From Bacteroidetes bacterium GWF2_35_48 (lineage in GTDB: Bacteria; Bacteroidota; Bacteroidia; Bacteroidales; GWF2-35-48), in assembly GCA_001769125.1 (NCBI GenBank), contig MEOG01000093.1:1726-65725 (forward strand): a stretch of DNA of 64,000 nucleotides, given 5' to 3'. The translations under genes and the position numbers were made by a program. The notes under the pieces were generated by a model. It was not told the DNA's origin, ran no database searches, and saw only the letters and a program-made list of their open reading frames with translations. Below are positions 23,953 through 50,079 of the stretch, piece after piece. Numbering within the stretch: the first letter of the stretch is position 1; each line of letters starts with the position of its first letter.

Positions 23953-24098
23953 GTTGCAGGTTGCATGGTTGCATGGTTGTAAATTGTGATTGATGTTTGA
24001 AATTGTAGTGTTGAGCGAAGCGTCGCACTGAGTTTGTCGAAGTGTCGAAGTATGCTACGCACCTACAATGAAAACCAAACCAACCTGCAACCTGCAAC
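23953..24098. repeat. GTTGCA(G/TG) array, nested REP (24008-24055), inverted CTGCAAC array
   Basis: gttgcag gttgcatg gttgcatg ... caac ctgcaac ctgcaac; the central 48 bp is the reverse complement of 30774-30821 with 2 mismatches. Confidence 0.85.
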
Positions 24099-24124
24099 AA
24101 AAAAAAGTACAGTTACCCTCCCTT

Positions 24125-26794
24125 TTACAATCTATAATCCCTCCTTAATGAGATAGAAATTTTTAAGCCAATCATGTGAAAATTTAACTTATTAAAACCG
24201 ATGAAAACGCCTGCGCCAAATAAAAGTCCGATATTGGTCATTGCATAACCGGCTTCCCAGTAAGGCTGAATTTTTTCAGTATAAAGCAATGAGAAATATA
24301 CATTTTCGTGCCATATCCTGTTGCTTAGCCATGGTAAGTATTTTAATGCTAAATAAGACGATCTGTATTTAATAAAAACCTGCGCATAATAGCTATTGGT
24401 GCTGTATTTATAATATTCTAAAAAGTTATATGCTTTGTTAAAATCATCAATAATAAACAAGAGTAAAGGTGTTTTGAAGTGTTTGTAATCAATAAAATTA
24501 AGATTTTTGCGAGATAAAAAATTGCCATAAATTAATTGATAATTAAATCTGTTTCCCGCACCGGTACGTATTGTTTGCTCAATTCCTCCCTCTAAATTAA
24601 TAAATTTAATTTCACTTTTTCCTATGTCCGGAAATCCCATTTTGCATTGAATACTCATTGTGGGGAAACGCGATGATAGCATATATTTTCGATCGTCTCT
24701 TATCTGATAAAAATGTTCTGGAGTATAACTCAGCGCTAAAGATGCTAATGTTGTATTATGCGGCTGCAACTTATTGAGGATAGAAGAATCAACAGGAGGT
24801 GCATTTATCGTGTATTCTCTGTCATCATATTTAATAAAAGCAAAATCAGAAAAATTACGAAGAAAACTTCTTTGATAATATCCGGCATCTGCTCTGAATA
24901 CAAGACCGTTCACAATGTCAATCTGGTGATTAAGTTCAACAAACTGATGCTCATAAAGCTTTATATAATTCAACCTGTAAAACAAGCTTGCTAGTGTATT
25001 TCCGAAAACACCCACACCCGTTTTACCTCCAAAATCAATGCTTTCACTTCCAAAAACGCCTCCGACAAATCCTCTTTTCATAGGAGCGTAGGAAAATCGG
25101 TACTTCATATTTATCATTAATTTTTCACGATCAATTGCATAAGAAAGCAAAGGGTACAACCGAATATCTGTATTGCCGAAATTCTTCCGGAAAAAACAAC
25201 TGGCGCCCAAAACAAAGCCATCCACCGTATTGAATCTGAATTGCTCCATTGATAATAATCCGCTGAAAGCAATTGCTCTTTTTTTCTCTTTATTGTTCCA
25301 GTATTTCCCAAATATCAAAGTAGAAGCAAAAGAAGATTTTCTTTCTAATGAATCTTCTGACTCTTTTTCATTATTCTGATCTATAATCTTTACCTCTTCT
25401 GAAGTTAATGCAACAGGTCTTATTATATTCCACCGGGCTGTATCAATTATCCTGGCTGAAGAATCAACATTAACTTTATGCGAACGTTTTATTTCAAGAT
25501 TTTTAATCCGGCTTGTATCTCTGGCTTGTCTGGCATTTTTTTCCATAAGTTCAGAAAGCTTGTGCATTTCCCTGTTTGAAAGTTCCTCTTTCTGCATCAA
25601 CTCTTCGATTTGCTCTTTTCTTTTTTGTTCTTTTTTAAGTTGCGCAGGCGTTTTATCTTTCTCTGTTTTGGTTTTTGTAGCTTTAATCTCTTCTTTTTGC
25701 GCAGCATTAAAAGCATCTGTGAGATTAGAGGGTGGCGCAATTTTCGTATTTAAAATAATAAATTTATATTTCACAGAAGATACATAATTAAAGATACCTT
25801 CATTGCCTATAAATTTCCCATTGATGTCGAAGTTGTAACTAATCGGCAGCCATATATTTTTCTCAACTTCTCCGAAAGTTTGTTTAACCTGAATAGAACC
25901 AATCACTGTCTGCGCTGTAAGATCGGCACTATGAATGTTCCAGTAATTATCTGAAATATATATATACCCTTCCACTAATTGCTTGCTTTTTCGTTTGGGA
26001 ATAACACGGATTTTATTGACGATTCTATCTCCCTGCTTTGTATATCCGGCATAGCGGTATTTGTAATGCTTCATTGCATAAGGAGCAAGAGGCAGAATAA
26101 TATCTCCTATTTTAGGCTGATACAGGCTTGCATTCACAAACTCCATAACATCATTGTTCTCTGATTCTCCAGATGGGAAATTGGAACGTATCATTTTAAC
26201 ATGCTGCTCGTATTTATCAGGGGCAGTAAATTGAATGTTGTTTAAAGATTCCTGCACGTATAAACTGCCCTCTTTTACCATATTTTTTTCATTGCGGGTA
26301 GCCACTTTCACTGCCCAGGAAATTTTATTCACTTTAAGTGTTCCCTTCATATAGACTTCAGATGAAAATTCCTGAATCTGATTTCTATAATAGGAAGCCA
26401 TGCCTATAGCTTTTCTGATAATCGGATACGCCTTGTCCTCATTGCTTGAACTTACGGTAACAGCAGGGATTTGGTATGGTTTAAGAGAAAGAATAACATC
26501 AAAAGTATTCAGTCCCTTTTTTACTTGTATTTTTTTTTCAATTGTTCCATAACCGAGGCATTGATATGTTGCAGTGTATGTTCCTTCATTCAGCATCAGA
26601 TAATAAATACCGTCTTTATTGGACAATGTACCAAAACGGGTTTCCTTTATATATACTGTAACGAAAGGCAATGGGGCATCGGTTTCATCTTTGGTTGTTC
26701 CTGTTACAGTTTGAGAAAATCCTGATGCAGCAATTTTCATTAAAATAAAAAACAGAATACTTTTTAATATATAGATTTTACTCGGTTTTCCCAT
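24125..26794 (-). CDS. DUF5686 and carboxypeptidase-regulatory-like domain outer-membrane protein
   Basis: TVTGTTKDETDAPLPFVTVYI; YPIIRKAI; YISDNYWNI; FNTVDGF; beta-barrel-like C-terminus. Confidence 0.8.
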   Translation of the reverse strand: MGKPSKIYILKSILFFILMKIAASGFSQTVTGTTKDETDAPLPFVTVYIKETRFGTLSNKDGIYYLMLNEGTYTATYQCLGYGTIEKKIQVKKGLNTFDVILSLKPYQIPAVTVSSSNEDKAYPIIRKAIGMASYYRNQIQEFSSEVYMKGTLKVNKISWAVKVATRNEKNMVKEGSLYVQESLNNIQFTAPDKYEQHVKMIRSNFPSGESENNDVMEFVNASLYQPKIGDIILPLAPYAMKHYKYRYAGYTKQGDRIVNKIRVIPKRKSKQLVEGYIYISDNYWNIHSADLTAQTVIGSIQVKQTFGEVEKNIWLPISYNFDINGKFIGNEGIFNYVSSVKYKFIILNTKIAPPSNLTDAFNAAQKEEIKATKTKTEKDKTPAQLKKEQKRKEQIEELMQKEELSNREMHKLSELMEKNARQARDTSRIKNLEIKRSHKVNVDSSARIIDTARWNIIRPVALTSEEVKIIDQNNEKESEDSLERKSSFASTLIFGKYWNNKEKKRAIAFSGLLSMEQFRFNTVDGFVLGASCFFRKNFGNTDIRLYPLLSYAIDREKLMINMKYRFSYAPMKRGFVGGVFGSESIDFGGKTGVGVFGNTLASLFYRLNYIKLYEHQFVELNHQIDIVNGLVFRADAGYYQRSFLRNFSDFAFIKYDDREYTINAPPVDSSILNKLQPHNTTLASLALSYTPEHFYQIRDDRKYMLSSRFPTMSIQCKMGFPDIGKSEIKFINLEGGIEQTIRTGAGNRFNYQLIYGNFLSRKNLNFIDYKHFKTPLLLFIIDDFNKAYNFLEYYKYSTNSYYAQVFIKYRSSYLALKYLPWLSNRIWHENVYFSLLYTEKIQPYWEAGYAMTNIGLLFGAGVFIGFNKLNFHMIGLKISISLRRDYRL

Positions 26795-26910
26795 TCTTTA
26801 TTTTATGAAAAATATAATAAAAAAGCTATTTTGAAGTGTGCGCAAAAATAAATTTTTTTACCGGATGTTGAAGTTTTTATCTGAATAATTATTTAACATC
26901 AATAAATTAA

Positions 26911-27003
26911 GTTGCAGGTTTAAGGTTGCAGGTTGCAGATTTTAACCGCTGACTGAACGGAGTCGAAGTCAGCGGTTGAGGCCTGCAACCAACAACCTGC
27001 AAC
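26911..27003. repeat. (GTTGCAG) array, perfect 11-bp-arm REP (26944-26977), inverted (CTGCAAC) array
   Basis: Four heptamer units at 26911-26938; AACCGCTGACT/AGTCAGCGGTT; three heptamer units at 26983-27003. Confidence 0.9.
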
Positions 27004-27058
27004 AAATATTTTTTATCCCCATATTTTCTTTGTATCTTGCAATTAAATTAAATTTATT

Positions 27059-27355
27059 ATGGAACAAATCTTATCATCTTGCGGGCTAATTTGTAATGAA
27101 TGCCGTTTTTATCCGAATGAATGTGCCGGATGTTTTATGGTTAAAGGACAAACCTTTTGGGCAAAAGAAATGATGCCAAACAAAACCTGTCCATTATTTC
27201 ATTGTGCGGGGAATGAAAAAAAGTACGCGCATTGTGGAGAATGCAGTGAACTGCCTTGTGCTATTTTCAGAGAAATGAAAGACCCCGAATCTTCAGCAGA
27301 AGAACATGAAAAAATGCTGGGAGTAAGAGCCGAAAGGTTGAGGAATAAGAATTAA
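27059..27355 (+). CDS. DUF3795-family Cys-rich protein
   Basis: CGLICNEC...CAGC...CPLFHC...HCGECSELPC. Confidence 0.85.
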   Translation: MEQILSSCGLICNECRFYPNECAGCFMVKGQTFWAKEMMPNKTCPLFHCAGNEKKYAHCGECSELPCAIFREMKDPESSAEEHEKMLGVRAERLRNKN

Positions 27356-27648
27356 GAACTCATGTTACGCATATCTAAACGAATCACATAGGAACATAGT
27401 TCATCTATGCTTAAAGCGAAGCATCTTATTTTTAGAACGTTCATTTTTATTAAAGTTTAATATCATTGACGCTCCAACTACGCCATCTATGTGGTTAAAA
27501 TAATTTTGCGTAAAGGGAGTAAGTAACTGAACTTTCGCATAAATTAATTCGCTAAAAAATGAAATTAGTAACCATTTTTTAAAGAAAAATAAAAATATTT
27601 TTGCTTTTTCTGTTTTCATGAAAAATTAGGGCTGAAATCAAAATAATA

Positions 27649-27806
27649 ATATTCCGGTGCGCTGCACCTTTGTAAAAAACGCAGCTATCGCTGCTACAAA
27701 TATTATCGCAGCTCTGCTGCTACATTTGAAATGCAGCGGCAGAGCCGCAAAATATTTGTAAAACTAAAAAGAGATAGAATATCCAAGGTGCAGAGCACCG
27801 TAATAT
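27649..27806. mobile_element. About 158-bp long-hairpin REP/MITE-like element
   Basis: Outer IR ATATTCCGGTGCGCTGCACCTT / AAGGTGCAGAGCACCGTAATAT (2 mismatches); inner IR TACAAATATT..GCAGCTCTGCTGC / GCAGCGGCAGAGCCGC..AATATTTGTA. Confidence 0.7.
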
Positions 27807-28023
27807 ATACTGAAACTTGGCAGGTTTGCAAACAAGGCTGCTTAGTTTCAATTATACTGAGCGAATACAAATTTAATTATATTTTTGTAGCCCTTTTTAG
27901 CTATGCTGTCGAAGTATCTCTTGCATGGATTGCTGTTAACAATTGTTTCTATTTAGTGCTTGCAAGAAAACGTCAATTTCTGTGTTATGCTTGTCCTTAA
28001 AATCAGTCATGTACTTTAGTACA

Positions 28024-28044
28024 CCTGTCTGCCGACAAGGCAGG
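28024..28044. repeat. REP-like CCTGTCTGCCGACAAGGCAGG
   Basis: Same family as the hairpin at 42491/42856-42870 and the CCTGCC..GGCAGG units at 50017-50058. Confidence 0.7.
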
Positions 28045-28198
28045 CTCCTAATTTTAAACCCTTCGCAAGCCTTGAACTTGACATTTTCTTATCAAGCACT
28101 GACACTGTCAAGCAAAAAACATAAGTTTTCTTGCTGACACTAATTACAAAAATTATTAGTTCTTTTTCATACGAAAGCTCAGTAAATAAGATAAAAAT

Positions 28199-28885
28199 AT
28201 GAACAAATTTTTCTTAATCTATATTATTATTATTTATTTGCCTTTATGTGTTTTTTCACAAAATTCTGATACAACAAATTCAAAGAATAAAACTCTTGAA
28301 GAAATTTATCGTGAAGCCAGAGCATCAGAGGGTGAAATAATAGTACCTCCGCAAATAAATCCTGATTATTATAAAAAAATTTCTGCTTATTTCAGCGAGA
28401 ATAAAATTGATATACTCATACTTGAATTTAAAAAATACAGAGACCTTGCAAAGAAAAATTCCGGAAGCTTTGTAAGCGGTAATCTGATTCTTGGAGCACC
28501 ATCTGATCCATACTTCTCTCCCTCTGAAAATGCCAAAAGAGCCTCTTTCCTTGGAAGCTCCATTGAAAAATATATTGCTGAAATTAAAGATACCGCGACA
28601 TTCAGTAAAATCATTCTGAAGCTATTGGGGAATAAAATTATTTATTCCGAGATGCAGTATGTTTTTTATACATTTGAGATGATAGATGTTGTGGGTTCCG
28701 GTCGTTTTACTTATCCTGGAAAAGGAATAGAAATAAAAAAAAACCTTGTTTTGTTATTGTTAGAAAAATCAATGGAATTGTATCCGCAGAAAAATTTTAT
28801 ACTATTAAGATCTGATGCAGAAAAATATAAAGGAAAGCATTTTCTTGAATTTTTAAAAATACTCCATAAAACCATCAGAACCTAA
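28199..28885 (+). CDS. Hypothetical exported protein
   Basis: 228 aa with Sec-type signal peptide (MNKFFLIYIIIIYLPLCVFSQ); no family recognised; stop codon overlaps the mutL stop. Confidence 0.65.
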   Translation: MNKFFLIYIIIIYLPLCVFSQNSDTTNSKNKTLEEIYREARASEGEIIVPPQINPDYYKKISAYFSENKIDILILEFKKYRDLAKKNSGSFVSGNLILGAPSDPYFSPSENAKRASFLGSSIEKYIAEIKDTATFSKIILKLLGNKIIYSEMQYVFYTFEMIDVVGSGRFTYPGKGIEIKKNLVLLLLEKSMELYPQKNFILLRSDAEKYKGKHFLEFLKILHKTIRT

Positions 28886-30729
28886 AACCTGTTGTCTAAC
28901 TCTTCGTTAGATAGAATTGATATGATTGTTTTGCCGTCGTAGGTATAATTCGGTACGGAGCATAAAAAAAGCTGATTAAATAAAATTTTCATTTCTTCTA
29001 AAGCAAGGGACTTTGAATAATTTACTGATGAGGCCTTAGCCAGCGCCCATGCCGCTTTCTCCTGAACACTTGTCTTAATATCGCCCTGTGTTATTTTATA
29101 GTTTTCAAGAAAATTGCTTACAATATTCTCAATGTTTCCGGTATCAATGTTACCCGGTGTACCATTAATTATAAAAGATCTTCCACCAAATTCGCTTATT
29201 TCAAAACCCAGGGCATTTATATCAGGCATAATTTCTTTTAACAATTCAGCATCCGCTGCATTTAATTCAATGGTAACAGGGAAAAGCATTTTCTGAACTT
29301 CTTTTTTATTAGCAGAAGCCATGATTAAATAGCGTTCAAATAAAATTCTTTCATGCGCCCTTTTTTGATGAATCATCATTAGTCCATTTTTAACCGGAGT
29401 CAAAATGTATTTATTTTTAAACTGAAAAAACAAATTTTTTTCTACGCTTTCATTGCTTAGACCTTTTGCAAACAAATCTTCTTCTGATTTTGAAGAAGAA
29501 AAATCATCTCTCTCATTTTTTTCTATACCCTCGTAAAGTGCTTCCCAGTTCTTTTTGTTGTCATTATTATGCTTTTCAAAAAAATCATGAATATTCGAAT
29601 TGGAACTCAATCTTTTTACATTATCAAAAGGATTAAATTCGGGATTTATTTTTACTTCAGGGACTTTAATTTCTGTATCATCTGTAAGCATGGGTATGTC
29701 TACAAATTTTTCAATATCAAAATCAATAGAAGGAACAATATTAAATTTTCCCAAAGCTTCTTTAACGGAAGCCTGAATAATTTGCCAAATTAAATATTCA
29801 TCGCAAAATTTAATTTCTGTTTTAGTAGGATGAATATTTACGTCAATTTTAGAAGGGTCTATTGAAAAATAAAGGAAAAACGAAAGCATTGTATTAGGGG
29901 GAAGAATTTTTTCATACGCAATAGAAACAGCTTTGTAAAAATAAGGGTGTCTCATATAACGCTTATTCACAAAAAAGAACTGCTCCCCGGATGTTTTTCT
30001 TGCAAATTCGGGTTTTCCGATATAACCTTTTATCCCTATCATTGTTGTTTCTGTATCCACGGGAATAAGATTCTGCTGAATATTTTTTCCGAAAACATTG
30101 ATGATTTTTTGTTTCAAAGGAGAAATAGGGAGATTATAAATTTCTTCATCATTATGGAAAAGAGAAAAAGCAATATCCGTATTTGCTAAAGCTATTCTCT
30201 GTATTTCTTCAATTATGTGGCGGAACTCAGTCTGTGGAGATTTTAAAAATTTTCTTCTTGCCGGAACATTGAAAAATAAATTTTTTACAGCAAAGCTGGT
30301 TCCATCAGAGCATGAAACAGGCTGCTGGCTTTCAACTTCAGAAGCACTGATGAGAATACATGTTCCGATTTCGTCTTCTTTACGTTTTGATTTCATCTCA
30401 ACCTGCGCTATTGCAGCAACAGACGCAAGCGCTTCTCCTCTGAAACCCATTGTTCGTATGCAGAACAAATCATTCGCAGTTTTTATTTTTGAAGTAGCAT
30501 GGCGTTCAAAACACAAGCGTGCATCTGTTTCAGACATACCACAACCATTATCAATAATCTGAATCAATGTTCTGCCTGCATCTTTAATTATTATTTTTAT
30601 GAAAGTACTTCCAGCATCTACAGCATTCTCTACAAGTTCTTTCACAACAGATGCTGGTCGCTGAATTACTTCGCCGGCAGCAATCTGGTTCGCTACAGAA
30701 TCGGGAAGAAGTTTTATTATATCGGACAT
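28882..30729 (-). CDS. mutL: DNA mismatch repair endonuclease MutL
   Basis: NQIAAGEVIQRPASVVKELVENAVDAG, HATSKI, GFRGEALAS, DVNIHPTKTE, HQKRAHERILFE. Confidence 0.97.
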   Translation of the reverse strand: MSDIIKLLPDSVANQIAAGEVIQRPASVVKELVENAVDAGSTFIKIIIKDAGRTLIQIIDNGCGMSETDARLCFERHATSKIKTANDLFCIRTMGFRGEALASVAAIAQVEMKSKRKEDEIGTCILISASEVESQQPVSCSDGTSFAVKNLFFNVPARRKFLKSPQTEFRHIIEEIQRIALANTDIAFSLFHNDEEIYNLPISPLKQKIINVFGKNIQQNLIPVDTETTMIGIKGYIGKPEFARKTSGEQFFFVNKRYMRHPYFYKAVSIAYEKILPPNTMLSFFLYFSIDPSKIDVNIHPTKTEIKFCDEYLIWQIIQASVKEALGKFNIVPSIDFDIEKFVDIPMLTDDTEIKVPEVKINPEFNPFDNVKRLSSNSNIHDFFEKHNNDNKKNWEALYEGIEKNERDDFSSSKSEEDLFAKGLSNESVEKNLFFQFKNKYILTPVKNGLMMIHQKRAHERILFERYLIMASANKKEVQKMLFPVTIELNAADAELLKEIMPDINALGFEISEFGGRSFIINGTPGNIDTGNIENIVSNFLENYKITQGDIKTSVQEKAAWALAKASSVNYSKSLALEEMKILFNQLFLCSVPNYTYDGKTIISILSNEELDNRF

Positions 30730-30744
30730 ATTATTTCATATAAA

Positions 30745-30843
30745 TATTGGGGATATGGGGATGTGGATACGTTGCATGCTTCGACACTTCGACAAACTCA
30801 GTGCGACGCTTCGCTCAGCACAGGTGCAACGTATTTACATGCC
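30745..30843. repeat. Filled hairpin element: TGTGGATACGTTGCA[48-bp nested REP]TGCAACGTATTTACATGCC
   Basis: Insert at 30777-30824; the empty form is at 44426-44459. Confidence 0.85.
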
Positions 30844-30864
30844 AAACTCAATGCCAACCAATCA

Positions 30865-33327: not shown

Positions 33328-33719
33328 GGGGCCGGTTTTGGTTTTGACAGCAAGTTGAAAGGATATGTAAGCATGCCGGGTAACGTGGTTCTTCCCGTAA
33401 AAAAGTACTGCAAACAATTAAAAGGCGAAAATTCATACGCGCTTGCAGCTTAATCACCAAGTGACTTAAGCACAGAACAGGACAAGGTCTTGTTCCAGGC
33501 TGTTCCGCTACAGATTTTTCTCAGCAATCTGAAGCATCGGAGCACTAGTTCTGTTGAGATAGCATTTGTGATGTTTCTAAGCAATTGCGAAATAACAGAA
33601 ACTAAGGTTCAGATAGGTCTCTTTTCTCCAGTCTGCACCCTACAATTTCAGAAAAGATAAGCATGTAGAAAGCATATTGGTTCCTTGTTTGGACCCGGGT
33701 TCGACTCCCGGCGGTTCCA
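33328..33719 (+). ncRNA. ssrA: tmRNA; tag peptide (A)GENSYALAA at 33424-33453
   Basis: 5' GGGGCCG..GGTTTTGAC; T-arm CCGGGTTCGACTCCCGG; acceptor 3' strand CGGTTCC-A; tag ORF ends YALAA-TAA; CCA is not fully encoded. Confidence 0.96.
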
Positions 33720-33736
33720 CACATTTAAGAAACACA

Positions 33737-38635: not shown

Positions 38636-38805
38636 TAGGAATACAGTAGGAATTCGATAGGAATTCGATAGGAATTCGATAGGAATTCGATAGGAATACA
38701 ATAGGAATACAATAGGAGTACAGTAGAAATACAATTGTACATCTACTGAACATCTATTGTTGTACTATTGAACACCTATCAAATCAACAATTGTATATCT
38801 ACTGA
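38636..38805. repeat. 11-bp tandem array that inverts polarity at 38734/38735
   Basis: Nine TAG-N5-CRR units (4 exact TAGGAATTCGA) at 38636-38734, then TTG/CTG-N5-CTA units (ttgtacatcta, ctgaacatcta, ttgttgtacta, ttgaacaccta). Confidence 0.88.
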
Positions 38806-41858: not shown

Positions 41859-41864
41859 AAGCTA

Positions 41865-42275
41865 TTAGTCAATAAAGAAAAAGAAAAAAGCAGCGGCTGC
41901 ATATTCTTTCTTTACTCCCTGTGCGCTTCCTATGATAGAACCATTTTTACGAACATCGCCGTTGGATTCGATTTTTCCAACAATAGAGCCATTCTTACGA
42001 ACATCGCCGTTGGATTCAATTTTTCCAACAATAGAACCACTTTTGCGAATATCGCCGTTTGATTCGATTTTTCCAACAATACTGCCGCTTTTGCGAACAT
42101 CACCGTTGGATTCAAATTTTCCGACAATACTTCCATTAATTCTTACATCGCCATTGGATTCAACTTTTCCGACAATGCTGCCGTTTTTACGCAAATCCTG
42201 TGCTGTTGCCTGATTGGTATTTAAAACCATAACAGCAAATAAAAAAACAAATGATAAAAAAAGTCCTTTTTTCAT
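41865..42275 (-). CDS. Exported 16-aa repeat protein (beta-flower-like)
   Basis: Signal peptide MKKGLFL..ATAQ; D(V/I)RKNGSIVGKIESNG x5.5; hydrophobic tail YAAAAFFFFFID. Confidence 0.75.
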   Translation of the reverse strand: MKKGLFLSFVFLFAVMVLNTNQATAQDLRKNGSIVGKVESNGDVRINGSIVGKFESNGDVRKSGSIVGKIESNGDIRKSGSIVGKIESNGDVRKNGSIVGKIESNGDVRKNGSIIGSAQGVKKEYAAAAFFFFFID

Positions 42276-42444
42276 AATATTTAGTATTAATTTAATTTTT
42301 GGCAATTTACAAAAAAAATCAAAACGGCTGACAATGAGCGATAACTTTTTCAAAAGACTATATTAAAAATCATAAAAAATTTGGTTTCAGGTAAAAATCA
42401 GAAGCTTGTTTTAACCTGTATTATTCATGACCTTTAATAAAAGT

Positions 42445-42486
42445 GTTGCAGGTTGCAGGTTGCAGGTTGCAGGTTGCAGGTTGCAG
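42445..42486 (+). repeat. (GTTGCAG) x6 perfect heptamer array; inverted CTGCAAC units at 42915-42935
   Basis: Direct reading of the sequence. Confidence 0.95.
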
Positions 42487-42501
42487 GTTACCTGTCGGCA
42501 G

Positions 42502-42855
42502 CTACCGTGTGGACACATCTTTGAGAAGAGAAAAAGTTTATTAAAAACTCCTGTCTTCTCGTACAATACAATGCTGTGATTTTGTCACAAAATTTGCAAG
42601 CATTATTTTGTACAAAATAAACTCTGTGATGTAGCAAATTTTCCGCCAAAATCTTTAATTTACATTTGTTTTAGAACCCCCGAGCTTTAGCTCGGGGTTA
42701 TTCACCTGCCAGCCGATTCACTTGCTCAATTAGGCAAGGCAAGCAGGTAAATCCCCCAAGCGGGATAAGCTCTAAAGGGTCATATTAAACGCATTTTTAT
42801 CCGCTAAGGCGGATGCGAGCGTATTATAATAAAACGATTTGTGTCCACACGGTAG
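42502..42855. mobile_element. 354-bp MITE with 16-bp perfect TIRs and a 10-bp target-site duplication
   Basis: TIRs CTACCGTGTGGACACA (42502-42517) / TGTGTCCACACGGTAG (42840-42855); direct repeat CTGTCGGCAG at 42492-42501 and 42856-42865; no ORF of 60 aa or more inside. Confidence 0.88.
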
Positions 42856-42979
42856 CTGTCGGCAGACAGGGCTGCAAGTAACGTGTTGAAATATCAAATA
42901 TCATTGCAAACAACCTGCAACTTGCATCCTGCAACAAAGGGTAGAAATTTATGAATTGAATAAGTTAAATATTTGTTTG

Positions 42980-44251
42980 CTACATTGCCTTCATTCTTCC
43001 CCATAATTTTTTACTTTGTTCCTGAGAAAAACGCAGAATATCTTTTTCATCCACAGATTGAAGCTGCCAGTCTTTTACAATAAGTTTTCCTGAAGATATC
43101 ACATGCCTCACATGACGGTTTTCGAGACCAAAAATGAAATGTCCTAAAAAATTATTCTGATTGAAATCAGTCGGAGAATCATAATCCAGCACTACAAGAT
43201 TGTTTTCAGCATCTCCGGAGAAATTATTTTCTTTAATATAACGGTGTACATTCCTGAAGCGTTTGTATGCTCCCGGGTAATCTATTGCATCAAATCCCTG
43301 ACCTACATAAAAAGCAGTTTTCGCACTACGCAGCATATCGCTATACATTCCGTCGGTTCCAAGCATAATATTTTCTCCCAAACCGCACGAATTAAAATAT
43401 CCCACATTATTGTTCAGGTTGCTTTCACAGTTCTGTACGACCCAAACCGGAGAAATTCGTATCAGTTCTTTTTCTATATCATCAAGGTGAAGGCAATGAC
43501 CCAAAATTGTTTTACCGGAATTCAACGCACCTGCTTTTGAAAGCCGCTCAACAACAGTCATTCCATATTCTTTTTTGCAATGCTCTTCGTCTGATTTGTC
43601 CTCTGCAACATGAATATGAATCCCTGAATTGTATTTTTGTGATAATTTAACAGCCTTATTCAGAGTATTTTCTCCAACAGTAAAGCTTGCATGCAAACCC
43701 ACAAGTGCCTGTTTTTTCTTCATGTATTCTTCTGTTTCTTCATGTCCTGATGTCGCTTTGTCTAATCCATCGCGGTCTGTAATTTCGTAACATAATAAAT
43801 GCGATACACCTACTTTTTCAAAAGCTTGTGCAATAATTTCAAGAGAACCTTTTATATAATTTGGAGATGCATGATGATCAATAACAAAGGTAACTCCATT
43901 TTTCGCGCAAGCCATAGCGGTTACTAATGCAGAGGCTTCTATTGATTCTTTGTCCAAGCATTTGTCGAGTGTCCACCAAATATATTCCAGAATTTCAATA
44001 AAATTTCCCGGAGATTTTTTCGGAGCGCCCATGCCACGTGCCAGAGCAGAATAAACATGATGATGGCCGCATGCAAAAGAATGTGTTACATATTTACCTG
44101 AACAGTCAATTACATTATCCCCAGCATCGGGTTGCGCATTTTTAAGAAAAGTTATTGTTCCATTTATCCCTTCAGAAACACGAATATCTGTTTTAGAAAA
44201 TTCCAGTGTTTCAGCATTGATGTAATTTGTATTTTTTAATAATATTGACAT
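42980..44251 (-). CDS. ssnA: Amidohydrolase, SsnA-like putative aminohydrolase
   Basis: CGHHHVYSALARGM, WWTLDKCLD, VIDHHASP, LCYEITDR, GLHASFT, HIHVAE, LGHCLH, NNNVG, LGTDG. Confidence 0.75.
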   Translation of the reverse strand: MSILLKNTNYINAETLEFSKTDIRVSEGINGTITFLKNAQPDAGDNVIDCSGKYVTHSFACGHHHVYSALARGMGAPKKSPGNFIEILEYIWWTLDKCLDKESIEASALVTAMACAKNGVTFVIDHHASPNYIKGSLEIIAQAFEKVGVSHLLCYEITDRDGLDKATSGHEETEEYMKKKQALVGLHASFTVGENTLNKAVKLSQKYNSGIHIHVAEDKSDEEHCKKEYGMTVVERLSKAGALNSGKTILGHCLHLDDIEKELIRISPVWVVQNCESNLNNNVGYFNSCGLGENIMLGTDGMYSDMLRSAKTAFYVGQGFDAIDYPGAYKRFRNVHRYIKENNFSGDAENNLVVLDYDSPTDFNQNNFLGHFIFGLENRHVRHVISSGKLIVKDWQLQSVDEKDILRFSQEQSKKLWGRMKAM

Positions 44252-44256
44252 ATTGG

Positions 44257-44389
44257 TTTTGGGTTTTGGGTTTTAGGTTTTGGGTTTTAGGTTTTGGGTT
44301 TTAGGTTTTAGGTTTTAGGTTTTAGGTTTTAGGTTTTAGGTTTTAGGTTTTAGGTTTTAGGTTTTAGGTTTTAGGTTTTAGGTTTTAGG
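44257..44389 (+). repeat. Telomere-like heptamer array (TTTTRGG) x19
   Basis: 4 TTTTGGG and 15 TTTTAGG units, with 13 consecutive TTTTAGG at 44299-44389. Confidence 0.97.
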
Positions 44390-44395
44390 TTTTGA

Positions 44396-44481
44396 AATGT
44401 GGAATGTGGAATGTGGAATGTGGAATGTGGATACGTTGCATGCAACGTATTTACATGCCAAGTACATGCCAAGTACATACC
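44396..44481 (+). repeat. (AATGTGG) x5, perfect 20-bp palindrome ATACGTTGCATGCAACGTAT (44431-44450), then TACATGCCAAG x2
   Basis: Direct reading; this is the empty form of the element at 30762-30843. Confidence 0.92.
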
Positions 44482-44483
44482 TA

Positions 44484-44936
44484 TTAATTCGGATATTTTC
44501 CGGCAATTTTTTTAAAAAACCTATGAAAGCGGTGTGGAAAAGCAAGCGGTTCAAGGTACATAAAAATACATTCACCGGTAATAAGGCAAATATTTGCCCT
44601 TACCGCTGTATCAACAGCCTTTTCAGATTCGCATCCAGTTTGAATCCATAGATGTTTTATCTTTTTCAATGCCAGTTCTTCCACTATTTTAACGGTTAAT
44701 TCTTTATTAACAATTATAACAGCACCTTCAACTTCTGTGGGCAAAGATTGAACATTTGCACAACATTTTTCATCAAGTATGAAATCGGCATTTGGGTTAA
44801 CCGGATAAATTGTTTTCCCGCATAACTTTAGCTGCTTACAAGCTAAATGACCAAATTTCCTAGACTTTCTTGATGCTCCGATAACAGCAATATGCTGAAT
44901 GTCTAAAAAATCTTTTATTGCAGTTAAGGATACCAT
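44484..44936 (-). CDS. CoA-binding domain protein
   Basis: IAVIGASR...KFG, IYPVNP and LWIQTG motifs. Confidence 0.88.
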   Translation of the reverse strand: MVSLTAIKDFLDIQHIAVIGASRKSRKFGHLACKQLKLCGKTIYPVNPNADFILDEKCCANVQSLPTEVEGAVIIVNKELTVKIVEELALKKIKHLWIQTGCESEKAVDTAVRANICLITGECIFMYLEPLAFPHRFHRFFKKIAGKYPN

Positions 44937-44939
44937 ATT

Positions 44940-46580
44940 TTATTTTATTATCATTTCAAGAATAGGTTCTCCCGTGCTTGCATTGGGAAAAGACATATTT
45001 AAAAAAGCAGCGATTGTTGGTGCTATATCTGTGATATTGACAGGTCGGGAAATGGAATTTCTTCCGATTTTCCATCCATAAAAAATCAAGGGAACATGTG
45101 TGTCGTAGCTGTAACCGGAGTTATGCGTTGTAGCCGTACTGATATCTTCAACCCAACCGGAAGTAAGATTAATCAGAACATCGCCAGAACGTTTTTGCTG
45201 GAAACTGTTTTGCATTTTCTCGAAAATACCTTTTGTAAAATGTGTAGTCTGCAAAGTTGTTGATGTAATCGTATTGGAAACACCATTAAACTGAAGCAAA
45301 AACTGAGCTGTTTTATTCTGAATATCTTCAAGAGAAATTTTTGCATCTTCAATCATGTTATGATTCAGAAATATCTGCTGCTCTACATATCCCTGCACCC
45401 ATTCACCTTTTCCATAAACAGCATTCAGATACGTTTTAAGTAAAGTCAATGCATAAAAATTTTTAAAATAACCCGATGCAACTTTCAAGCTGTCTAAGTA
45501 TCTTGGTATTTCAGCCACACCGCAATTCGATGTTACAAAAATCAATGTATTTTCTTTTCCGATGAGATCGTCAACTACCTCCAAAAAATGCGCTATATCT
45601 TTATCAAGGCGTAAGTAACAATCCTGAATTTCCACAGAGGAAGGGCCAAACTGAAGACCAATATTATCCGGAACAGAATAGCTGATCGCAATTAAATCCG
45701 TATGTTCATCTTTTCCCATTTCTTCATTTACAATTGCATGAACAGCAAAATCAGTTGTAAGCGTATTTCCGGCAGGAACATTTTTAATAATGTTCAGGGT
45801 TTTCATTTTTTCTTTTATTGCTTTTATATCATAAGGGAATGTTGTACCATTTCTTTCAAAGCCAATTTCAAAACTGTTTTTATCGGTCAGAGATTCCTTG
45901 TATTCAGAAATAGGAAGGAGTGTATTCCACTCTCTGTCTGAAAATGTTTTAGAAAAATCTTTATCATTAAATTCTTTTACCCATTTAGGCAATTCATCCA
46001 TATAATAGGTATTACTTACCCATTGTCCGCTTTTGCCTTCGATCCAGTAAGCTGCATTTGCAGAATGCCCTGCGCCGAGGATTGCAGAACGCTCTTCAAG
46101 AGAAACACCAATAACTTTAGATTTTCCGGTAGAAAAAAGTTTAATTTCATCTCCAAGTGTAGAAGCAAGGAGTTGTTTCGGAGATTTTTTCCCTTCATCA
46201 GATTTAATGCCAACCATTTTGTATGCAGGGTCGTCTACACAATTTACTTTTTCATTTTTCAAACGCAGGTACCATTCATTGGAAACAATTCCATGAAAAG
46301 AAGGAGTTGTTCCCGTGTAAATACTGGCTATTCCAGGTGCGTTTTGAGTAAACATATAATTAATGTTTGCATTTTTAAAAGAAGTTCCTTCATACATTAA
46401 ACGTTTGAATCCTTTTTCTTCAAACTTATCCCAAAATCGGTAAATATAATCGTAGCGCATGCCTTCAATAACAATTCCAATTACAAGTTTTGGTTTTTCA
46501 GGAGGAATTTTTTTATTCTGAGCTGTTGAAGCAGACATAATCGCAATAGAAAAAATTAAAAGAAAGAAGAAAAATTTCAT
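44940..46580 (-). CDS. Alkaline phosphatase superfamily protein, PafA-like, with a degenerate active site
   Basis: PKLVIGIVIEGMRYDY, GFKRLM, SIYTGTTPSFHGIVSNEW, YLRLDKDIA, GDV, HNSGYSYDTHVPLIFYG. Confidence 0.85.
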   Translation of the reverse strand: MKFFFFLLIFSIAIMSASTAQNKKIPPEKPKLVIGIVIEGMRYDYIYRFWDKFEEKGFKRLMYEGTSFKNANINYMFTQNAPGIASIYTGTTPSFHGIVSNEWYLRLKNEKVNCVDDPAYKMVGIKSDEGKKSPKQLLASTLGDEIKLFSTGKSKVIGVSLEERSAILGAGHSANAAYWIEGKSGQWVSNTYYMDELPKWVKEFNDKDFSKTFSDREWNTLLPISEYKESLTDKNSFEIGFERNGTTFPYDIKAIKEKMKTLNIIKNVPAGNTLTTDFAVHAIVNEEMGKDEHTDLIAISYSVPDNIGLQFGPSSVEIQDCYLRLDKDIAHFLEVVDDLIGKENTLIFVTSNCGVAEIPRYLDSLKVASGYFKNFYALTLLKTYLNAVYGKGEWVQGYVEQQIFLNHNMIEDAKISLEDIQNKTAQFLLQFNGVSNTITSTTLQTTHFTKGIFEKMQNSFQQKRSGDVLINLTSGWVEDISTATTHNSGYSYDTHVPLIFYGWKIGRNSISRPVNITDIAPTIAAFLNMSFPNASTGEPILEMIIK

Positions 46581-46700
46581 ATTTGTATATATTATTGTAA
46601 GCTGTAAAGATAAAACAAATAGCCATATTTTTAAAAGTAGAAAATGGGATTTTCAAAAAATAATGAACAGGCTTTTCAACAAAATATTATTCATTTTTTC

Positions 46701-46869
46701 TTAATCCTTAATCCTACTACTAAATCCTTAATCCCTTCTAATCTCACGAAACCGCAAACCTGTGAGGAGCTTCCACACTATCTTACGCACAAAACCTCAC
46801 AGGATTGCTGAATCCTTAATTCTACTTCTTAACCTGCCAGACTGCGTCAAGCAGGCAAGTCCTTAATCC
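46701..46869 (-). repeat. (GGATTAA)/(GGAGTA)-type array on the minus strand, carrying a CCTGTGAGG/CCTCACAGG IR (46759-46803) and a 27-bp REP (46833-46859)
   Basis: TTAATCC units at 46701, 46708, 46728 and 46863, with variants in between. Confidence 0.8.
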
Positions 46870-46930
46870 ATTTTTTATAATTTGATAAGTCGGAAATACA
46901 TACTACTTTTGAAGCTACATTTAATAATTT

Positions 46931-47797
46931 ATGAATTTGTTTATTTATTGGATATTCAGAGTGTTTTTATTCAAGCTGCGGTTCACACCTTTTTTTTTAC
47001 TGCGCTTCTTTGCCTCTTTTCTTTTTTTTATCTTGTACTATATCGCAGAGTACAGAAAAAATGTTGTAATTTCTAATTTAAAAAAGTGCTTCCCTGAAAA
47101 AAGTGATTCGGAAATTAAATCAATTACTAAGCAATTTTATCTTCATTTAAGCGATATAACATTAGAAAGTCTGAAAGGATTTTCTATGACAAAAAAACAA
47201 ATTCTCAACCATTACAAAGTCCTTAATCCTGATGTACTCGATAAATTTCTAACGCAACAAAAAGACATTATTTGTCTTGCCAGTCATTATGGGAACTGGG
47301 AGTGGGGAATTCTTGCTGTTCCATTTCAGGTTAAGCTTTCCATGATTGCACTGTACAAGCCATTAACCAATAAATACATCGAAAAATTTTTAATAAAAAA
47401 ACGCGCTGCAATGGGCATGAAAATGGTTTCCATTTATGACACCCGCGCATCCTTTGAGTCTCAAAAAGAAAAAAAATCAGGCTATATAATGGCCGCCGAT
47501 CAATGCCCTTCTAATGTAGAAAAAGCAGTATGGATTAAGTTTTTTAATATTGAAACAGCTTGTCTGCATGGCGTAGAATATTATACAATAAAGTACAAAA
47601 TGCCGCTCGTATTTTTTAATGTTCAGAAAGTGAAACGCAATTACTACACTTTAGAAATAAAGGAAATTGAGTACAATCCTGAACAATACAATGCCGGATT
47701 TGTTACTTCATCTTATATGAAAATGCTTGAAGAAATTATTTACAAAAAGCCTGAATTCTGGCTCTGGTCGCATAAAAGGTGGAAGCATGTCAGGTAA
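46931..47797 (+). CDS. Lipid A late acyltransferase (LpxL/HtrB family)
   Basis: NLKKCFPEKS, SHYGNWE, ADQCP, FFN, Y...LE..I...PEFWLWSHKRWK. Confidence 0.9.
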   Translation: MNLFIYWIFRVFLFKLRFTPFFLLRFFASFLFFILYYIAEYRKNVVISNLKKCFPEKSDSEIKSITKQFYLHLSDITLESLKGFSMTKKQILNHYKVLNPDVLDKFLTQQKDIICLASHYGNWEWGILAVPFQVKLSMIALYKPLTNKYIEKFLIKKRAAMGMKMVSIYDTRASFESQKEKKSGYIMAADQCPSNVEKAVWIKFFNIETACLHGVEYYTIKYKMPLVFFNVQKVKRNYYTLEIKEIEYNPEQYNAGFVTSSYMKMLEEIIYKKPEFWLWSHKRWKHVR

Positions 47798-47821
47798 TTG
47801 GTATTTTGTTGAGAGAAAAAG

Positions 47822-48382
47822 ATGGAACTGTTCACTATATTTTTAATTGCAATAGGATTATGTTTTGATACTTTTGCTGTTTCTGTTTCATGCGGACTGT
47901 TAGAAAAAGAAATATCATTTTTCAAAGCAGTGAAAGTTGCAAGTTCTCTTGCCTTTTTTCAGGCGTTTATGCCTTTTGCAGGATGGCTTCTTGGGGTTAA
48001 AGTTAATCTGTTTATTGCAGATTTTGATCATTGGATCGCTTTTGGAATGCTTTCTTTAATTGGGTTAAAAATGATTTACGAAAGTCTCAAAAAAGAGGAG
48101 AAAAAGAAAAAATTCAATCCGCTTGATATTAAAATTTTACTTTGGATTTCTTTAGCTACCAGTATTGATGCTTTTGTTGTTGGTATCAGTTTCGGACTCA
48201 TCAGTATTCCGATTGTAGTTCCGATTATTATTATTGGTACTACTACTTTTTTCGTTGCAATGCTTGGAATGTTGTTCGGAAAGAAAACGGGTGGAAAACT
48301 CGGTAAAAAAATGGAAACTGTCGGAGGAATTATTTTAATTGGGATTGGAATAAAAATATTGATTGAGCATTTGTATTTTTAG
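47822..48382 (+). CDS. mntP: Manganese efflux pump MntP
   Basis: AIGLCFDTFAVS, FQAFMP..GW, DHWIAF, LATSIDAF.VG, GGIILIGIG. Confidence 0.92.
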   Translation: MELFTIFLIAIGLCFDTFAVSVSCGLLEKEISFFKAVKVASSLAFFQAFMPFAGWLLGVKVNLFIADFDHWIAFGMLSLIGLKMIYESLKKEEKKKKFNPLDIKILLWISLATSIDAFVVGISFGLISIPIVVPIIIIGTTTFFVAMLGMLFGKKTGGKLGKKMETVGGIILIGIGIKILIEHLYF

Positions 48383-48394
48383 TATATTTATATT

Positions 48395-48526
48395 GGATTA
48401 AGGATTAAGGATTAAGGATTAAGGATTAAGGATTAAGGAGTAAGGAGTAGGAGTAGGATTAAGGAGTAGGAGTAGCCTGCCAGACTGCGTAAAGCAGGCA
48501 GGGAGTAGGAGTAAGAGTAGGAGTAA
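48395..48526 (+). repeat. (GGATTAA) x6 then GGAGTA(A) units, with a 27-bp REP CCTGCCAGACTGCGTAAAGCAGGCAGG at 48476-48502
   Basis: Direct reading; the REP matches 46833-46859 at 25/27 positions. Confidence 0.92.
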
Positions 48527-48564
48527 GAAATACAATTTACGAATCAAATTACGTTTTATAAAAT

Positions 48565-49956
48565 ATGAAAATTATTTTTTCAATATTATTTTTAATTTTT
48601 TCAGGATTATTTCTTACAGGTCAGAATGTTCAAATAAAAGGGAATAATCCTTTGTTTGTAGGTAAGACAATTTTTTTCTGCACATATACGGATCAAATCA
48701 CATACCTGTTTGATACGCTTTGTACATCTAACGTTGACGCAAATGGAAACTTTAACTGTTCTTTTTTTCTTGATGAAATAAAACCTGTTTTTACATCATT
48801 CGGAGCATACAAATATTTAATCTATGCAGAGCCCAGAAAAATATACACTGTAACATTTCCTGACATAAAAGATAAAAGTAAAGCTGATGATATAAACCCC
48901 TATTTTGAAGAGATAACCTTGTTTTTGAAAATTGAGAATTCTGATCGCTCCGAATTAAATAATGCGATTTTTCGTTTTGATTTAACATGCAATGATTACA
49001 TCAATGCACGCTACAATGAAATTTATAAGCAAGCTAAAAATTCCGGGGTTGATAAAATGATAAACTATATAGATTCGCTTTTTTCTTTCTGTAATCATCC
49101 GTATTTCATAAAATACAAAGAATATAAGTATGCGCTGATTAAATATTTTGCTTACGTGAGGCACGAACAAACAATGACACGTGAATTTTATAAAGGAAAG
49201 CCGGTTCTGTATCACAATACATCTTATATGAATCTTTTCAATCAGACATTTGATAATTACTTTACTTATTTTGCTAAAACCACCGAGGGATCAACATTGC
49301 CAGACCTTATTGGCAAAGCAAAAAGTCCGCGACGAATTAAAAACCTGTTGAAAAAGAATAACGCTTACGATGATGAAGTCCTACAGGAGCTTATCATATT
49401 AAAAGGCTTAAGGGATGTTTTGCTCTCAGGAGAATATAGTAAAAATGTTATTATACAAACACTCGATTCATTAGGACTACAAACGTCAGTTCCTTTTCAT
49501 AAAACTATTGCAGGAAATATTGTAAAACTTGCCATGCAAAAAGAACCTGCTGTATCATTAAATACAATACCTTTATTCAATACAGACAGTACTGCTTTTA
49601 ATACAGAGAAGTTTAAAGGAAAATTTGTATATCTGAATTTTTGCAGATGCAAAAGTTATCCCTGTCTTGAAGAAAGTGAATTGATAAAAATCTGGAATAA
49701 AAAAAAGCCTTTCAATATAGAGTTTATAACTGTTTTTGTTGAAGAAACGGCAGAAATAGTAAGAATACATCATGCTAAAAATAAAGCAGACTGGACTATT
49801 TTATATTGTCCGAAATCGGAACCAATATTAAAAACATTAAAAGTCAGAGCTTATCCGGCATATTTTTTATTTGATACAGACGGAAAAATGCTAATGCCTT
49901 ACGCGAAAACAATGAAAGAGGGATTTGAGTCTTTTTTCATGAGAACATTCAAATAG
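48565..49956 (+). CDS. Exported protein with C-terminal TlpA/thioredoxin-like domain (non-canonical CxxC)
   Basis: Signal peptide; FKGKFVYLNFCRCKSYPC, IEFITV, KVRAYPAYFLFD.DGK. Confidence 0.7.
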   Translation: MKIIFSILFLIFSGLFLTGQNVQIKGNNPLFVGKTIFFCTYTDQITYLFDTLCTSNVDANGNFNCSFFLDEIKPVFTSFGAYKYLIYAEPRKIYTVTFPDIKDKSKADDINPYFEEITLFLKIENSDRSELNNAIFRFDLTCNDYINARYNEIYKQAKNSGVDKMINYIDSLFSFCNHPYFIKYKEYKYALIKYFAYVRHEQTMTREFYKGKPVLYHNTSYMNLFNQTFDNYFTYFAKTTEGSTLPDLIGKAKSPRRIKNLLKKNNAYDDEVLQELIILKGLRDVLLSGEYSKNVIIQTLDSLGLQTSVPFHKTIAGNIVKLAMQKEPAVSLNTIPLFNTDSTAFNTEKFKGKFVYLNFCRCKSYPCLEESELIKIWNKKKPFNIEFITVFVEETAEIVRIHHAKNKADWTILYCPKSEPILKTLKVRAYPAYFLFDTDGKMLMPYAKTMKEGFESFFMRTFK

Positions 49957-49961
49957 TGGGG

Positions 49962-50079
49962 GTTGCTGTTGCAGGTTAAAAAGGTTGCAGGTTGCATGTT
50001 AACCGCTGGTTGAGCGCCTGCCTGTCCGCCTGCCTGCCGGCGAGGCAGGGTAGGCAGGGAGTCGAAACCAAGGTTGCAG
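49962..50079. repeat. GTTGCAG units flanking a triple-nested REP (50007-50070)
   Basis: TGGTTGAGCG[CCTGCCTGTCCG[CCTGCCTGCCGGCGAGGCAGG]GTAGGCAGG]GAGTCGAAACCA. Confidence 0.85.

Follow-up and report, generated by a model that had tools for sequence, protein, structure and literature searches.

Inverted heptamer arrays with a fixed arm order and nested hairpin cargo in a Bacteroidia genome, and their possible tie to four-helix-bundle genes

A 64,000-nucleotide stretch of the genome of Bacteroidetes bacterium GWF2_35_48 (positions 1726-65725 of contig C93; called the window throughout) contains four intergenic loci made of tandem copies of the heptamer GTTGCAG, three of which hold a hairpin element between a G-rich array and its inverted, C-rich counterpart. 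We found that the order of the two arms follows a rule: the G-rich arm lies 5' on whichever strand the locus is read, and this applies throughout the genome (G000; a 5.98-Mb draft in 142 contigs, 34.8% GC), to units other than GTTGCAG and in other phyla. Arrays of the same kind enclose four-helix-bundle genes elsewhere in G000, and the arm units of gene-bearing copies recur among the gene-less arrays of relatives. Our preferred, though still tentative, explanation is that the window loci are gene-less members of a widespread selfish hairpin-cassette class, with arms that change by slippage and loops that collect repetitive extragenic palindromic (REP) sequences and miniature transposable elements with inverted repeats (MITEs). 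Below, the other G numbers denote comparison genomes, C numbers contigs and L numbers loci.

GTTGCAG loci and the order of their arms

All four loci named in the original prediction were recovered by Tandem Repeats Finder (TRF) and by direct reading, with the small departure that the left arm of locus 1 is partly of period 8. This 5' G-rich arm (23953..23979) consists of GTTGCAG followed by GTTGCATG units, to which TRF assigns the period of 8, and pairs in the fold with the 3' C-rich arm (CAACCTG)2.6 at 24081..24098. The cargo between them (23980..24080) is a degenerate inner stem with a composite REP-like hairpin (GAGCGAAGCG...GTCGAAG), the 43-52-nt core of which has further copies on C103, C105 and C132 and at window positions 30774-30817 (C93:32499-32542). 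Locus 2 has four in-phase units, one of them a GTTTAAG variant, in its 5' G-rich arm (26911..26938; GTTGCAG GTTTAAG GTTGCAG GTTGCAG), followed by a REP-like hairpin (26944..26977), whose stem (AACCGCTGACT) is 11 bp long and whose cap, GAACGGAGTCGA, is of a family with 199-220 copies in G000, and by the 3' C-rich arm CCTGCAA CCAACAA CCTGCAA C (26982..27003). The 7-nt phase had been said to persist through the variant units here, and it does so in both arms around the REP hairpin.

In locus 3, a perfect (GTTGCAG)6.4 arm (42445..42489) and a (CAACCTG)3.6 arm (42911..42935) enclose a 380-bp MITE and a 57-nt core. Locus 4, which had been described as carrying its units in direct orientation, indeed does so on both sides of a nested REP: on the plus strand, GTTGCAG-type units (49962..50000) precede a triple-nested REP (50001..50070), in which the GAGCG...GAGTCGAA cap is split by two nested CCTGCC..GGCAGG hairpins, and a single GTTGCAG follows (50073..50079). 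When folded as single strands, loci 1 and 2 each form one long hairpin with the inverted arms as its stem (z of -5.3 and -8.1, respectively; 0 of 200 shuffles equal), and locus 4 does not fold as one long hairpin (z of -1.7). Loci 1-4 contain no open reading frame (ORF) in the loop.

Pairing of the arms is strongly directional in the genome as a whole. Among 80 exact runs of at least two GTTGCAG units, 32 have a complementary unit downstream and 2 have one upstream, at a distance of no more than 600 nt. With arms defined by at most one mismatch per unit, neighbouring arms form 23 convergent, 0 divergent and 20 direct pairs (p = 2.4e-7), and a local-alignment test over all unit families of G000 placed the G-rich arm 5' in 71 arm observations versus 6, four of these six being (GGCAGTC)n(GACTGTA)n composites, in which the two units complement each other in part only. 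Perfect ordinary hairpins outside arrays show no such bias (739 vs 744), compared with 126 vs 20 for stems within arrays. Outside G000, the metagenome contigs that contain (GTTGCAG)3 range from 32 to 70% GC; of 93, the complement follows downstream in 22 and stands upstream in 3. In 1.55 Mb of foreign loci the G-rich arm comes first in 82 versus 7 observations, in 35 versus 7 when GTTGCAG-like units are left out, and in 25 versus 4 when the remainder is counted by unit family. The genome-wide inverted pairing that the original prediction had raised is therefore non-random, recurring with other units and in a same-genus genome, and the rule that puts the G-rich arm 5' extends over unit families and phyla but not to ordinary hairpins.

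A locus of the same layout was observed in a distant genome of the phylum: at L233 (G260:C148), positions 1272-1564, (AGGTGAC)4.4 is followed by three perfect 30-nt hairpin repeats (CGCCGTCATTCCCGCGAAAGCGGGAATCCA) and then by (AACCTGC)20.6, which gives the G-rich array, hairpin cargo and C-rich array of the window but with a different hairpin.

Several further readings were considered and rejected. A role as terminators was discarded because convergent G-to-C pairs occupy every gene-orientation context, and selection against a C-rich-first arm as a Rho loading site because the sense strand often carries C-rich arrays that have no partner. The idea that arrays grow at their outer edge was also dropped: that edge is sharp, and just inside the inner edge one unit still resembles the array in part (3.6 vs 5.2 mismatches), what lies beyond it being random in strict phase.

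Hairpin cargo and four-helix-bundle genes

In G000 the REP cap GAGCGNAGTCGAA was counted 199 times in simple and 21 times in split form, 201 of the 220 being intergenic. Three of the 23 convergent GTTGCAG pairs are empty (4-6-nt loops; empty palindromes include C5:36754, C41:110286 and C100:125313), about 11 hold a REP-like hairpin with this cap, two hold a MITE and the rest other sequence. The proposal that the arrays attract REP and MITE insertions agrees with a nesting that is both above chance and oriented: an array is no more than 30 nt away from 17% of the REP caps, compared with 5.6% of random non-coding positions (about a threefold enrichment), and caps read from GAGCG to TCGAA have a 5' flank of the G type in 40 cases versus the C type in 6. 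Within direct arrays, caps read in this way are flanked by G-type units on both sides in 14 cases and by C-type units in 2; the C-then-G arrangement was found in none.

Hairpin families have particular partner unit families. Among the REP caps with an array within 40 nt, 12 of 34 stand beside GTTGCAG-type arrays; the hairpin CCTGTGAGG..CCTCACAGG has 57 copies, of which 13 have an array within 40 nt, 12 of these 13 being of the GGATTAA type. The triple-nested REP of locus 4 lies inside direct GTTGCAR arrays in 9 of 9 copies, whose interiors are identical and whose stem changes largely preserve pairing. With crude calling of the stem ends, no 3-4-mer was found to be conserved beside REP stems, the top 3-mer occurring in 11 of 171.

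The MITE of locus 3 (42491..42870) has the inverted ends CTACCGTGTGGACAC ... GTGTCCACACGGTAG and is inserted within the small hairpin CCTGTCGGCAGACAGG, with CTGTCGGCAG as flanking direct repeat. It is the only part of the loci that combines terminal inverted repeats, a target duplication (CTGTCGGCAG), the lack of an ORF and several copies; full or partial copies are present on C13, C5, C35 and C129, together with many solo ends. The core cargo beside it (42871..42910; GGCTGCAAGTAACGTGTTGAAATATCAAATATCATTGCAAACAA) is part of a dispersed palindromic element of ~160 bp, five copies of which align, with conserved sequence that extends outside the arrays; these copies vary in arm length and in the presence of the inner hairpin or the MITE. 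We suggest that such inserts would target the hairpin loop. In a same-species assembly (L299; ERZ28563708 scaffold_16606), the MITE interior differs at window 42690-42790, where ~100 nt with several hairpins are replaced by ~45 nt that include a REP cap; the difference is a genuine variant or else a chimera that arose in assembly from a second copy of the MITE.

Four-helix-bundle genes, for which the original prediction had advised a search, are present elsewhere in G000 and are bracketed by the same kind of inverted arrays. Five small genes exceed the cut-off for PF05635, one of which was confirmed as TIGR02436 with 2RLD as the closest solved structure. For three of the five, inverted tandem arrays stand on the two sides with the G-rich arm first, so that complete gene-bearing versions exist in G000 with units other than GTTGCAG. 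These are the genes on C10 (C10:56257), in the order (ATTTGAAG)3.4, gene, (ATCTTCAA)7; on C30 (C30:6758), with (GATAAAA)11, gene and degenerate TTTTATC units; and on C135 (C135:12793), with (GATTGAGGG)9, gene and (TCAATCTACCC)20. The gene on C103 (C103:27128-27442) is placed between 21-nt arrays, and the one on C82 is not bracketed, a (GTTGCAG)3-REP adjoining it on the wrong side. The 11-nt unit of a tandem array in the window, (TAGGAATACAA)9 at 38636-38735, recurs as its reverse complement TATTCCTATTG directly beside the C103 gene (L322:1018-1050, C103:27617-27649).

Eight such genes were examined in relatives (one of them at G002:C252:25522); each is flanked on either side, at most ~100 nt away, by tandem arrays with a period of 7-10, and six are clearly inverted and G-first. 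The family is also present in Bacteroides thetaiotaomicron. In three relatives, units of the gene-bearing arms recur in gene-less arrays that rank with the commonest of the genome concerned, namely CGGTAAT/ACCGATT in G002, AAGTGAC/CTTGTCA in G009, and ATAACTG and AAGGCTA in G005. Genomes with 3-6 such genes (G000, G002, G005 and G009) have 59-76 arrays per Mb and those with 0-3 genes 10-25, the comparison covering seven genomes, with samples of 110-200 kb. All gene-bearing copies seen lie between protein-coding genes. In our preferred explanation the four-helix-bundle protein would act on the arms.

Array families, lineage distribution and length variation

The period-7 enrichment for which a genome-wide test had been proposed was clearly present, with 353 arrays of period 7, 49 of period 6 and 46 of period 8; at a TRF score of at least 50 the numbers are 126, 8 and 5, respectively. 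Strong arrays lie outside genes in 238 of 247 cases (96%; crude ORF map), only ~7% of intergenic regions hold an array, and array density is even over the intergenic types (0.30-0.46 per kb), convergent spacers not being favoured. The arrays fall into more than 70 unit families, the largest being GTTGCAG with 91 arrays at 78 loci. Many families are one base apart (GTTGCAG, GTTGCAA, GTTTCAA, GTTTCAT), and within some arrays, such as C6:3105, single-base variants occur in blocks. Units had been said to end in GG, a claim that survives in weakened form: GG or CC is present in the unit of 49% of arrays versus 30% expected, but where a unit ends depends on its rotation. The units GTTGCAG, GGATTAA, GGAAGTC and GGTTTTA have no GGG run, and G-quadruplexes are therefore not expected.

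Arrays with other units, also part of the original prediction, were found in the window as (GGTTTTA)19.9, (AATGTGG)5.1 and (GGATTAA)10.4. The second comes directly after the first (44255..44431), with GGTTTTA at 44255-44393 and AATGTGG at 44396-44431, and the two abut the start codon of the gene 42980-44251. The third (48395-48465, within 48395..48528) is followed by GGAGTA hexamers that are broken by the hairpin CCTGCCAGACTGCGTAAAGCAGGCAGG. At 20956..21044, (TGTTTCA/TGTTTAA)9 abuts a REP hairpin whose stem family is shared with locus 2, and at 46700..46870 C-rich (CTTAATC) units surround the hairpin CCTGTGAGG...CCTCACAGG and a CCTGCC..GCAGGC hairpin.

Higher-order arrangements were also observed. 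Composites in the fixed order (AGTCGGC/GGCAGTC)n then (GACTGTA)n are located at C8:43964, C10:3672, C19:14671, C37:32080, C67:30580 and ~25 more loci; they have up to 27 copies, often with a 21-nt higher-order unit, and the complementary cores CAGTC and GACTG are common to both units. A CTTAGTG-rich unit of 57-63 nt alternates with short direct CTGCAAC arrays at C58:8018-8271, where the two form a higher-order tandem, and at C105:192692, C132:25541, C54:18761 and C122:15340. A separate family of ~30-bp palindromes has ACGTTGCATGCAACGT at its centre and, as a rule, TGTARATA/TATYTACA as flanks (window 44432-44451 and 21050-21063); its 12-mer GTTGCATGCAAC has 25 copies in G000 versus <1 expected.

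The DUF5686/CarboxypepD_reg protein of the window indicates Bacteroidia, and MutL is 68% identical to that of a groundwater Bacteroidia metagenome-assembled genome (MAG) and ~57% identical to that of Prolixibacteraceae. Two genomes, G001 and G002, are placed in the same genus; at 2.9 and 4.0 Mb they compare with 6.0 Mb for G000. DUF5686 is only ~59% identical between G000 and G002, which makes this "genus" deep. (GTTGCAG)3 was found in none of 40 relatives, the two same-genus genomes included, and in 1 of 400 genomes of the phylum. G002 has an array density close to that of G000 (61 vs 59 per Mb) and its own G-first pairs, with units unlike those of G000 (CGGTAAT, GGTAGTT, GGATTTA, GAAGTAA). 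Other genomes of the order have 10-76 arrays per Mb; period 7 clearly leads in the array-rich G005 and G009, the array-poor samples holding too few arrays to rank periods. G005 carries AACTGAT (= TAACTGA) arrays (loci L277-L286).

Aquifer metagenomes, and also two MAG assemblies from NCBI, contain contigs identical to that of the window. In comparisons that rest on short-read assemblies, loci 1-4 and (GGATTAA)10 have the same length in all same-species assemblies (six others for the 5' arm of locus 3; seven assemblies for GGATTAA). The (GGTTTTA)19.9 array differs by 7 and 42 nt among them, with flanks otherwise identical; its spacer measures 233, 226 or 191 nt, and several contigs end inside the array. 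As far as short-read assemblies allow, this variation is ordinary length-dependent slippage in whole 7-nt units.

Two further features of the window are a transfer-messenger RNA (tmRNA) gene at 33328-33722 on the plus strand (Rfam RF00023, 127 bits) and a 48-nt unit repeated five times at 41935-42176. The former is the only Rfam match over threshold in the window, the cargo of locus 3 having no credible match. The latter lies inside the ORF 41865-42353, which matches Bflower_2 and Bactofilin, and therefore looks like a 16-residue coding repeat.

Possible origins and known relatives

The class to which we tentatively assign the window loci would consist of hairpins whose arms are mirror-image tandem arrays of a 7-10-nt unit, with the G-rich array always 5' on either strand, and its complete members would carry in the loop a four-helix-bundle gene of PF05635/TIGR02436 (the "23S rRNA intervening-sequence protein" family). 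Established arms would gain and lose whole units through replication slippage. The hairpin centre would be a landing site for structure-seeking repeats, that is, REP-like capped hairpins, CCTGCC..GGCAGG hairpins and the MITE, and the nesting of these inserts would give the loci their layered look. The gene-less GTTGCAG hairpins would be mobile now or would have been so formerly. Several findings weigh against this account. A GTTGCAG-armed gene was absent from the five genes of G000 and from the fetched loci in the one spacing range searched, so that for the window's own family the cassette link remains an analogy. The two groups of genomes overlap at three genes (76 arrays per Mb in G005, 10 in G003), in a comparison of seven genomes with samples of 110-200 kb. 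At the outer ends of array hairpins a target duplication was found in one case (ATTTTAT, C100:125313), the other flanks being AT-rich with no clear duplication; this apart, neither a target duplication nor a filled/empty orthologous pair was seen, the nearest genome sharing only the DUF5686 gene (~59% identity) with flanks that are not syntenic, and loci 1-4 are invariant in same-species assemblies. The nearest solved structure of the protein, 2RLD, is uncharacterised, and the genes could simply be another cargo that lands in array hairpins.

The main rival to slippage acting on hairpin cassettes is a purely mutational origin with no element and no trans factor, which we regard as possible but less probable. 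Slippage would favour 7-nt units, the G/T-rich strand would fold back and prime itself to yield a G-first inverted pair, and REPs, MITEs and genes would be later passengers. This would fit the period-7 excess in most sampled genomes of the order, which have it whatever their gene content and each with its own units, the rank of heptanucleotides as the commonest long simple sequence repeats (SSRs) in surveys of prokaryotes (Mrazek 2007 as summarised in PMC4679880), the blocks of single-base variants at C6:3105, the copy-number steps of 7 nt, and the even, unoriented spread of arrays over intergenic types. G-strand arrays also fold slightly better than C-strand arrays for 6 of 6 units, by 0.6-1.5 kcal/mol in ensemble energy, but this asymmetry is small. 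Moreover, a mutational origin leaves unexplained the tight bracketing of genes (3/5 here and at least 6/8 in relatives, vs ~7% of intergenic regions with an array), the partnering of hairpin families with unit families, and GTTGCAG arms of the same polarity across contigs of 32-70% GC.

That the arrays are sites with a host function, either tandem binding sites of a regulator or nucleoid protein or selected RNA stem-loops (stabilisers, RNase III sites, terminators), appears improbable. The paired sites of Geobacter were read by their authors as binding sites of global regulators (PMC2700814), TAACTGA repeats of Beggiatoaceae are situated a short way upstream of start codons (PMC4679880), several window arrays abut start codons (e.g., 44252, 20981), and loci 1-4 do not vary across assemblies; yet arrays lack orientation to the flanking genes (111 vs 90) and a preference for convergent spacers, G-to-C pairs occupy every type of context, units are unconserved even in the genus, as the counts of 0/40 relatives and 1/400 phylum genomes for (GTTGCAG)3 illustrate, and dozens of unrelated units stand side by side in one genome. 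We rate slightly lower still a process of the REP/REPIN type (REPIN, REP doublet forming a hairpin), in which Y1 transposases, similar to IS200 and REP-associated tyrosine transposases (RAYTs), mobilise the hairpins and the arrays are target or by-product. G000 has ~8-10 Y1_Tnp matches and ~200 copies of REP-like cargo hairpins, and the single prevailing cap orientation in GTTGCAG arrays (14 vs 2) is what strand-specific single-strand transposition would give. The co-occurrence suggested in the original prediction did not materialise, however: across seven genomes the number of Y1 genes and the density of arrays do not go together (G005 with 2 genes has 76 arrays per Mb, G003 with 6 genes has 10), and in G000 the Y1 genes lie 2.7-8 kb from the nearest array and, in a brief look, 0.6-11 kb from the nearest REP caps. 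Y1 genes were rejected as builders on these grounds; in addition, no conserved 3-4-mer was seen beside REP stems, whose ends were called crudely, and the arm sequence varies by family, unlike REP. Least probable is the dedicated repeat-writing process that had been proposed to act in trans, for instance a telomerase-like or reverse transcriptase (RT)-based polymerase that adds G-rich units to 3' ends at breaks, with end joining producing G-first palindromes. The polarity might fit two G-strand-extended 3' ends joined as in a head-to-head telomere fusion. As had been noted, the window encodes no relevant gene, and the search of G000 lent the writer no support: its sole RT belongs to a group II intron (an RT/maturase matching TIGR04416 at 353.7 bits), which led us to reject RT as the writer. 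Dozens of unrelated units would further require dozens of templates, and the only same-species change seen is that the longest array has simply gained or lost entire units.

To call the loci undescribed biology was too strong, since paired convergent heptamer arrays have been reported for Geobacter (PMC2700814) and Xanthomonas (PMC4692102). Of the interpretation as a whole, the recurrent non-random architecture, the nested REPs and MITE and the four-helix-bundle lead are supported, and the repeat writer, the role of Y1 and the undescribed status are not. Xanthomonas campestris and X. citri have 70-75 convergent GGGAATC array pairs per genome, which are capable of forming stem-loops and for which the mechanism and any link to mobile elements are not known (Rehm et al. 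2015, PMC4692102). The likeness to the window lies in intergenic tandem heptamers, close convergent pairs on opposite strands and the same G-first polarity; phylum and units differ, and here REP-like hairpins and a MITE are enclosed, many unit families occur together and the same genome also has gene-bearing versions. Classes 1-4 of Geobacter metallireducens are tandem sites of 3-5 copies, the heptamer MTYCTGA included, in opposite-strand pairs at variable distance (Aklujkar et al. 2009, PMC2700814). They resemble the present loci as short tandem repeats paired on opposite strands at many intergenic places, but were read as regulator-binding sites, have other units and come with no description of nested REP cargo. 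Convergent pairing of the Xanthomonas and Geobacter type is thus found here (23 vs 0, and 71 vs 6 over all families), whereas the GGG runs behind G-quadruplexes in the Xanthomonas and Nostoc subtype are missing from the units.

The repetitive sequences of the short, tandemly repeated kind (STRRs) in filamentous cyanobacteria have the units CCCCAGT, TTGGTCA and CAACAGT. Vioque (1997) is reported to have described helix P12 of cyanobacterial RNase P RNA as lengthened by STRR units; the arrangement there would be inverted. None of the three units is among the top 50 unit families of G000, and the host is a Bacteroidia. TAACTGA arrays are distributed over Beggiatoaceae, Cyanobacteria and a few Bacteroidetes (MacGregor 2015, PMC4679880). 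With long SSRs (LSSRs), STRRs and TAACTGA arrays the present ones share tandem 7-nt units that are over-represented, mostly intergenic, lineage-specific and sporadic, and the LSSR features of a period-7 excess, a mostly non-coding location and whole-unit copy change (in the longest array only) were all found; those descriptions are of direct arrays, however, and do not include inverted pairing, a polarity rule or nested hairpins.

A different likeness is to the intervening sequences (IVSs) of 23S rRNA genes. In Coxiella, the ends of the IVS are inverted, its loop holds an ORF for the four-helix protein S23p, and strains have either 2 or 3 GACAGAT heptamers (PMC4990558). Inverted ends that form a long stem around an ORF of the PF05635 family are common to the IVSs of Coxiella, Leptospira and Xanthomonas (PMC4990558) and to the gene-bearing cassettes, and the strain-variable heptamer direct repeats beside the ORF are a further parallel with Coxiella. 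IVSs differ in lying inside 23S rRNA genes, from which RNase III cuts them out, whereas the elements described here lie between protein genes, have long tandem arrays as stems and, in the window, lack the ORF. The cargo itself resembles REP, bacterial interspersed mosaic elements (BIMEs) and REPIN-RAYT systems (Bertels and Rainey 2011, PMC3116915) in being short intergenic palindromes of hundreds of copies, nested and mosaic, and in that such palindromes receive insertions of other mobile elements; it differs in having family-specific tandem arrays as arms, with no linkage of arrays to Y1/RAYT genes found.

The loci are thus a genuine case, with strong statistics, of a repeat class that is known but has no explanation, in a new phylum and with a new unit, and to this class they add the layering of REPs and a MITE and the tie to four-helix-bundle genes. 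The origin of bacterial tandem heptamers has been open since the STRR reports, and the convergent pairs of Geobacter and Xanthomonas were noted without explanation; the polarity rule, the partner specificity of hairpins and units, and a candidate partner gene are three testable additions. In a broader version that we think unlikely, TIGR02436/PF05635 proteins would be unit-specific partners of hairpin cassettes across phyla, LSSRs, STRRs, the Xanthomonas and Geobacter pairs and the arrays described here would in large part be their gene-less progeny, and the G-first polarity would record a strand-specific step on single-stranded DNA or RNA. If the gene link is causal, it would give a function to a large family of "hypothetical" proteins and a joint account of this repeat class and of rRNA intervening sequences; if it is not, the polarity rule would still constrain any model of slippage or template switching.

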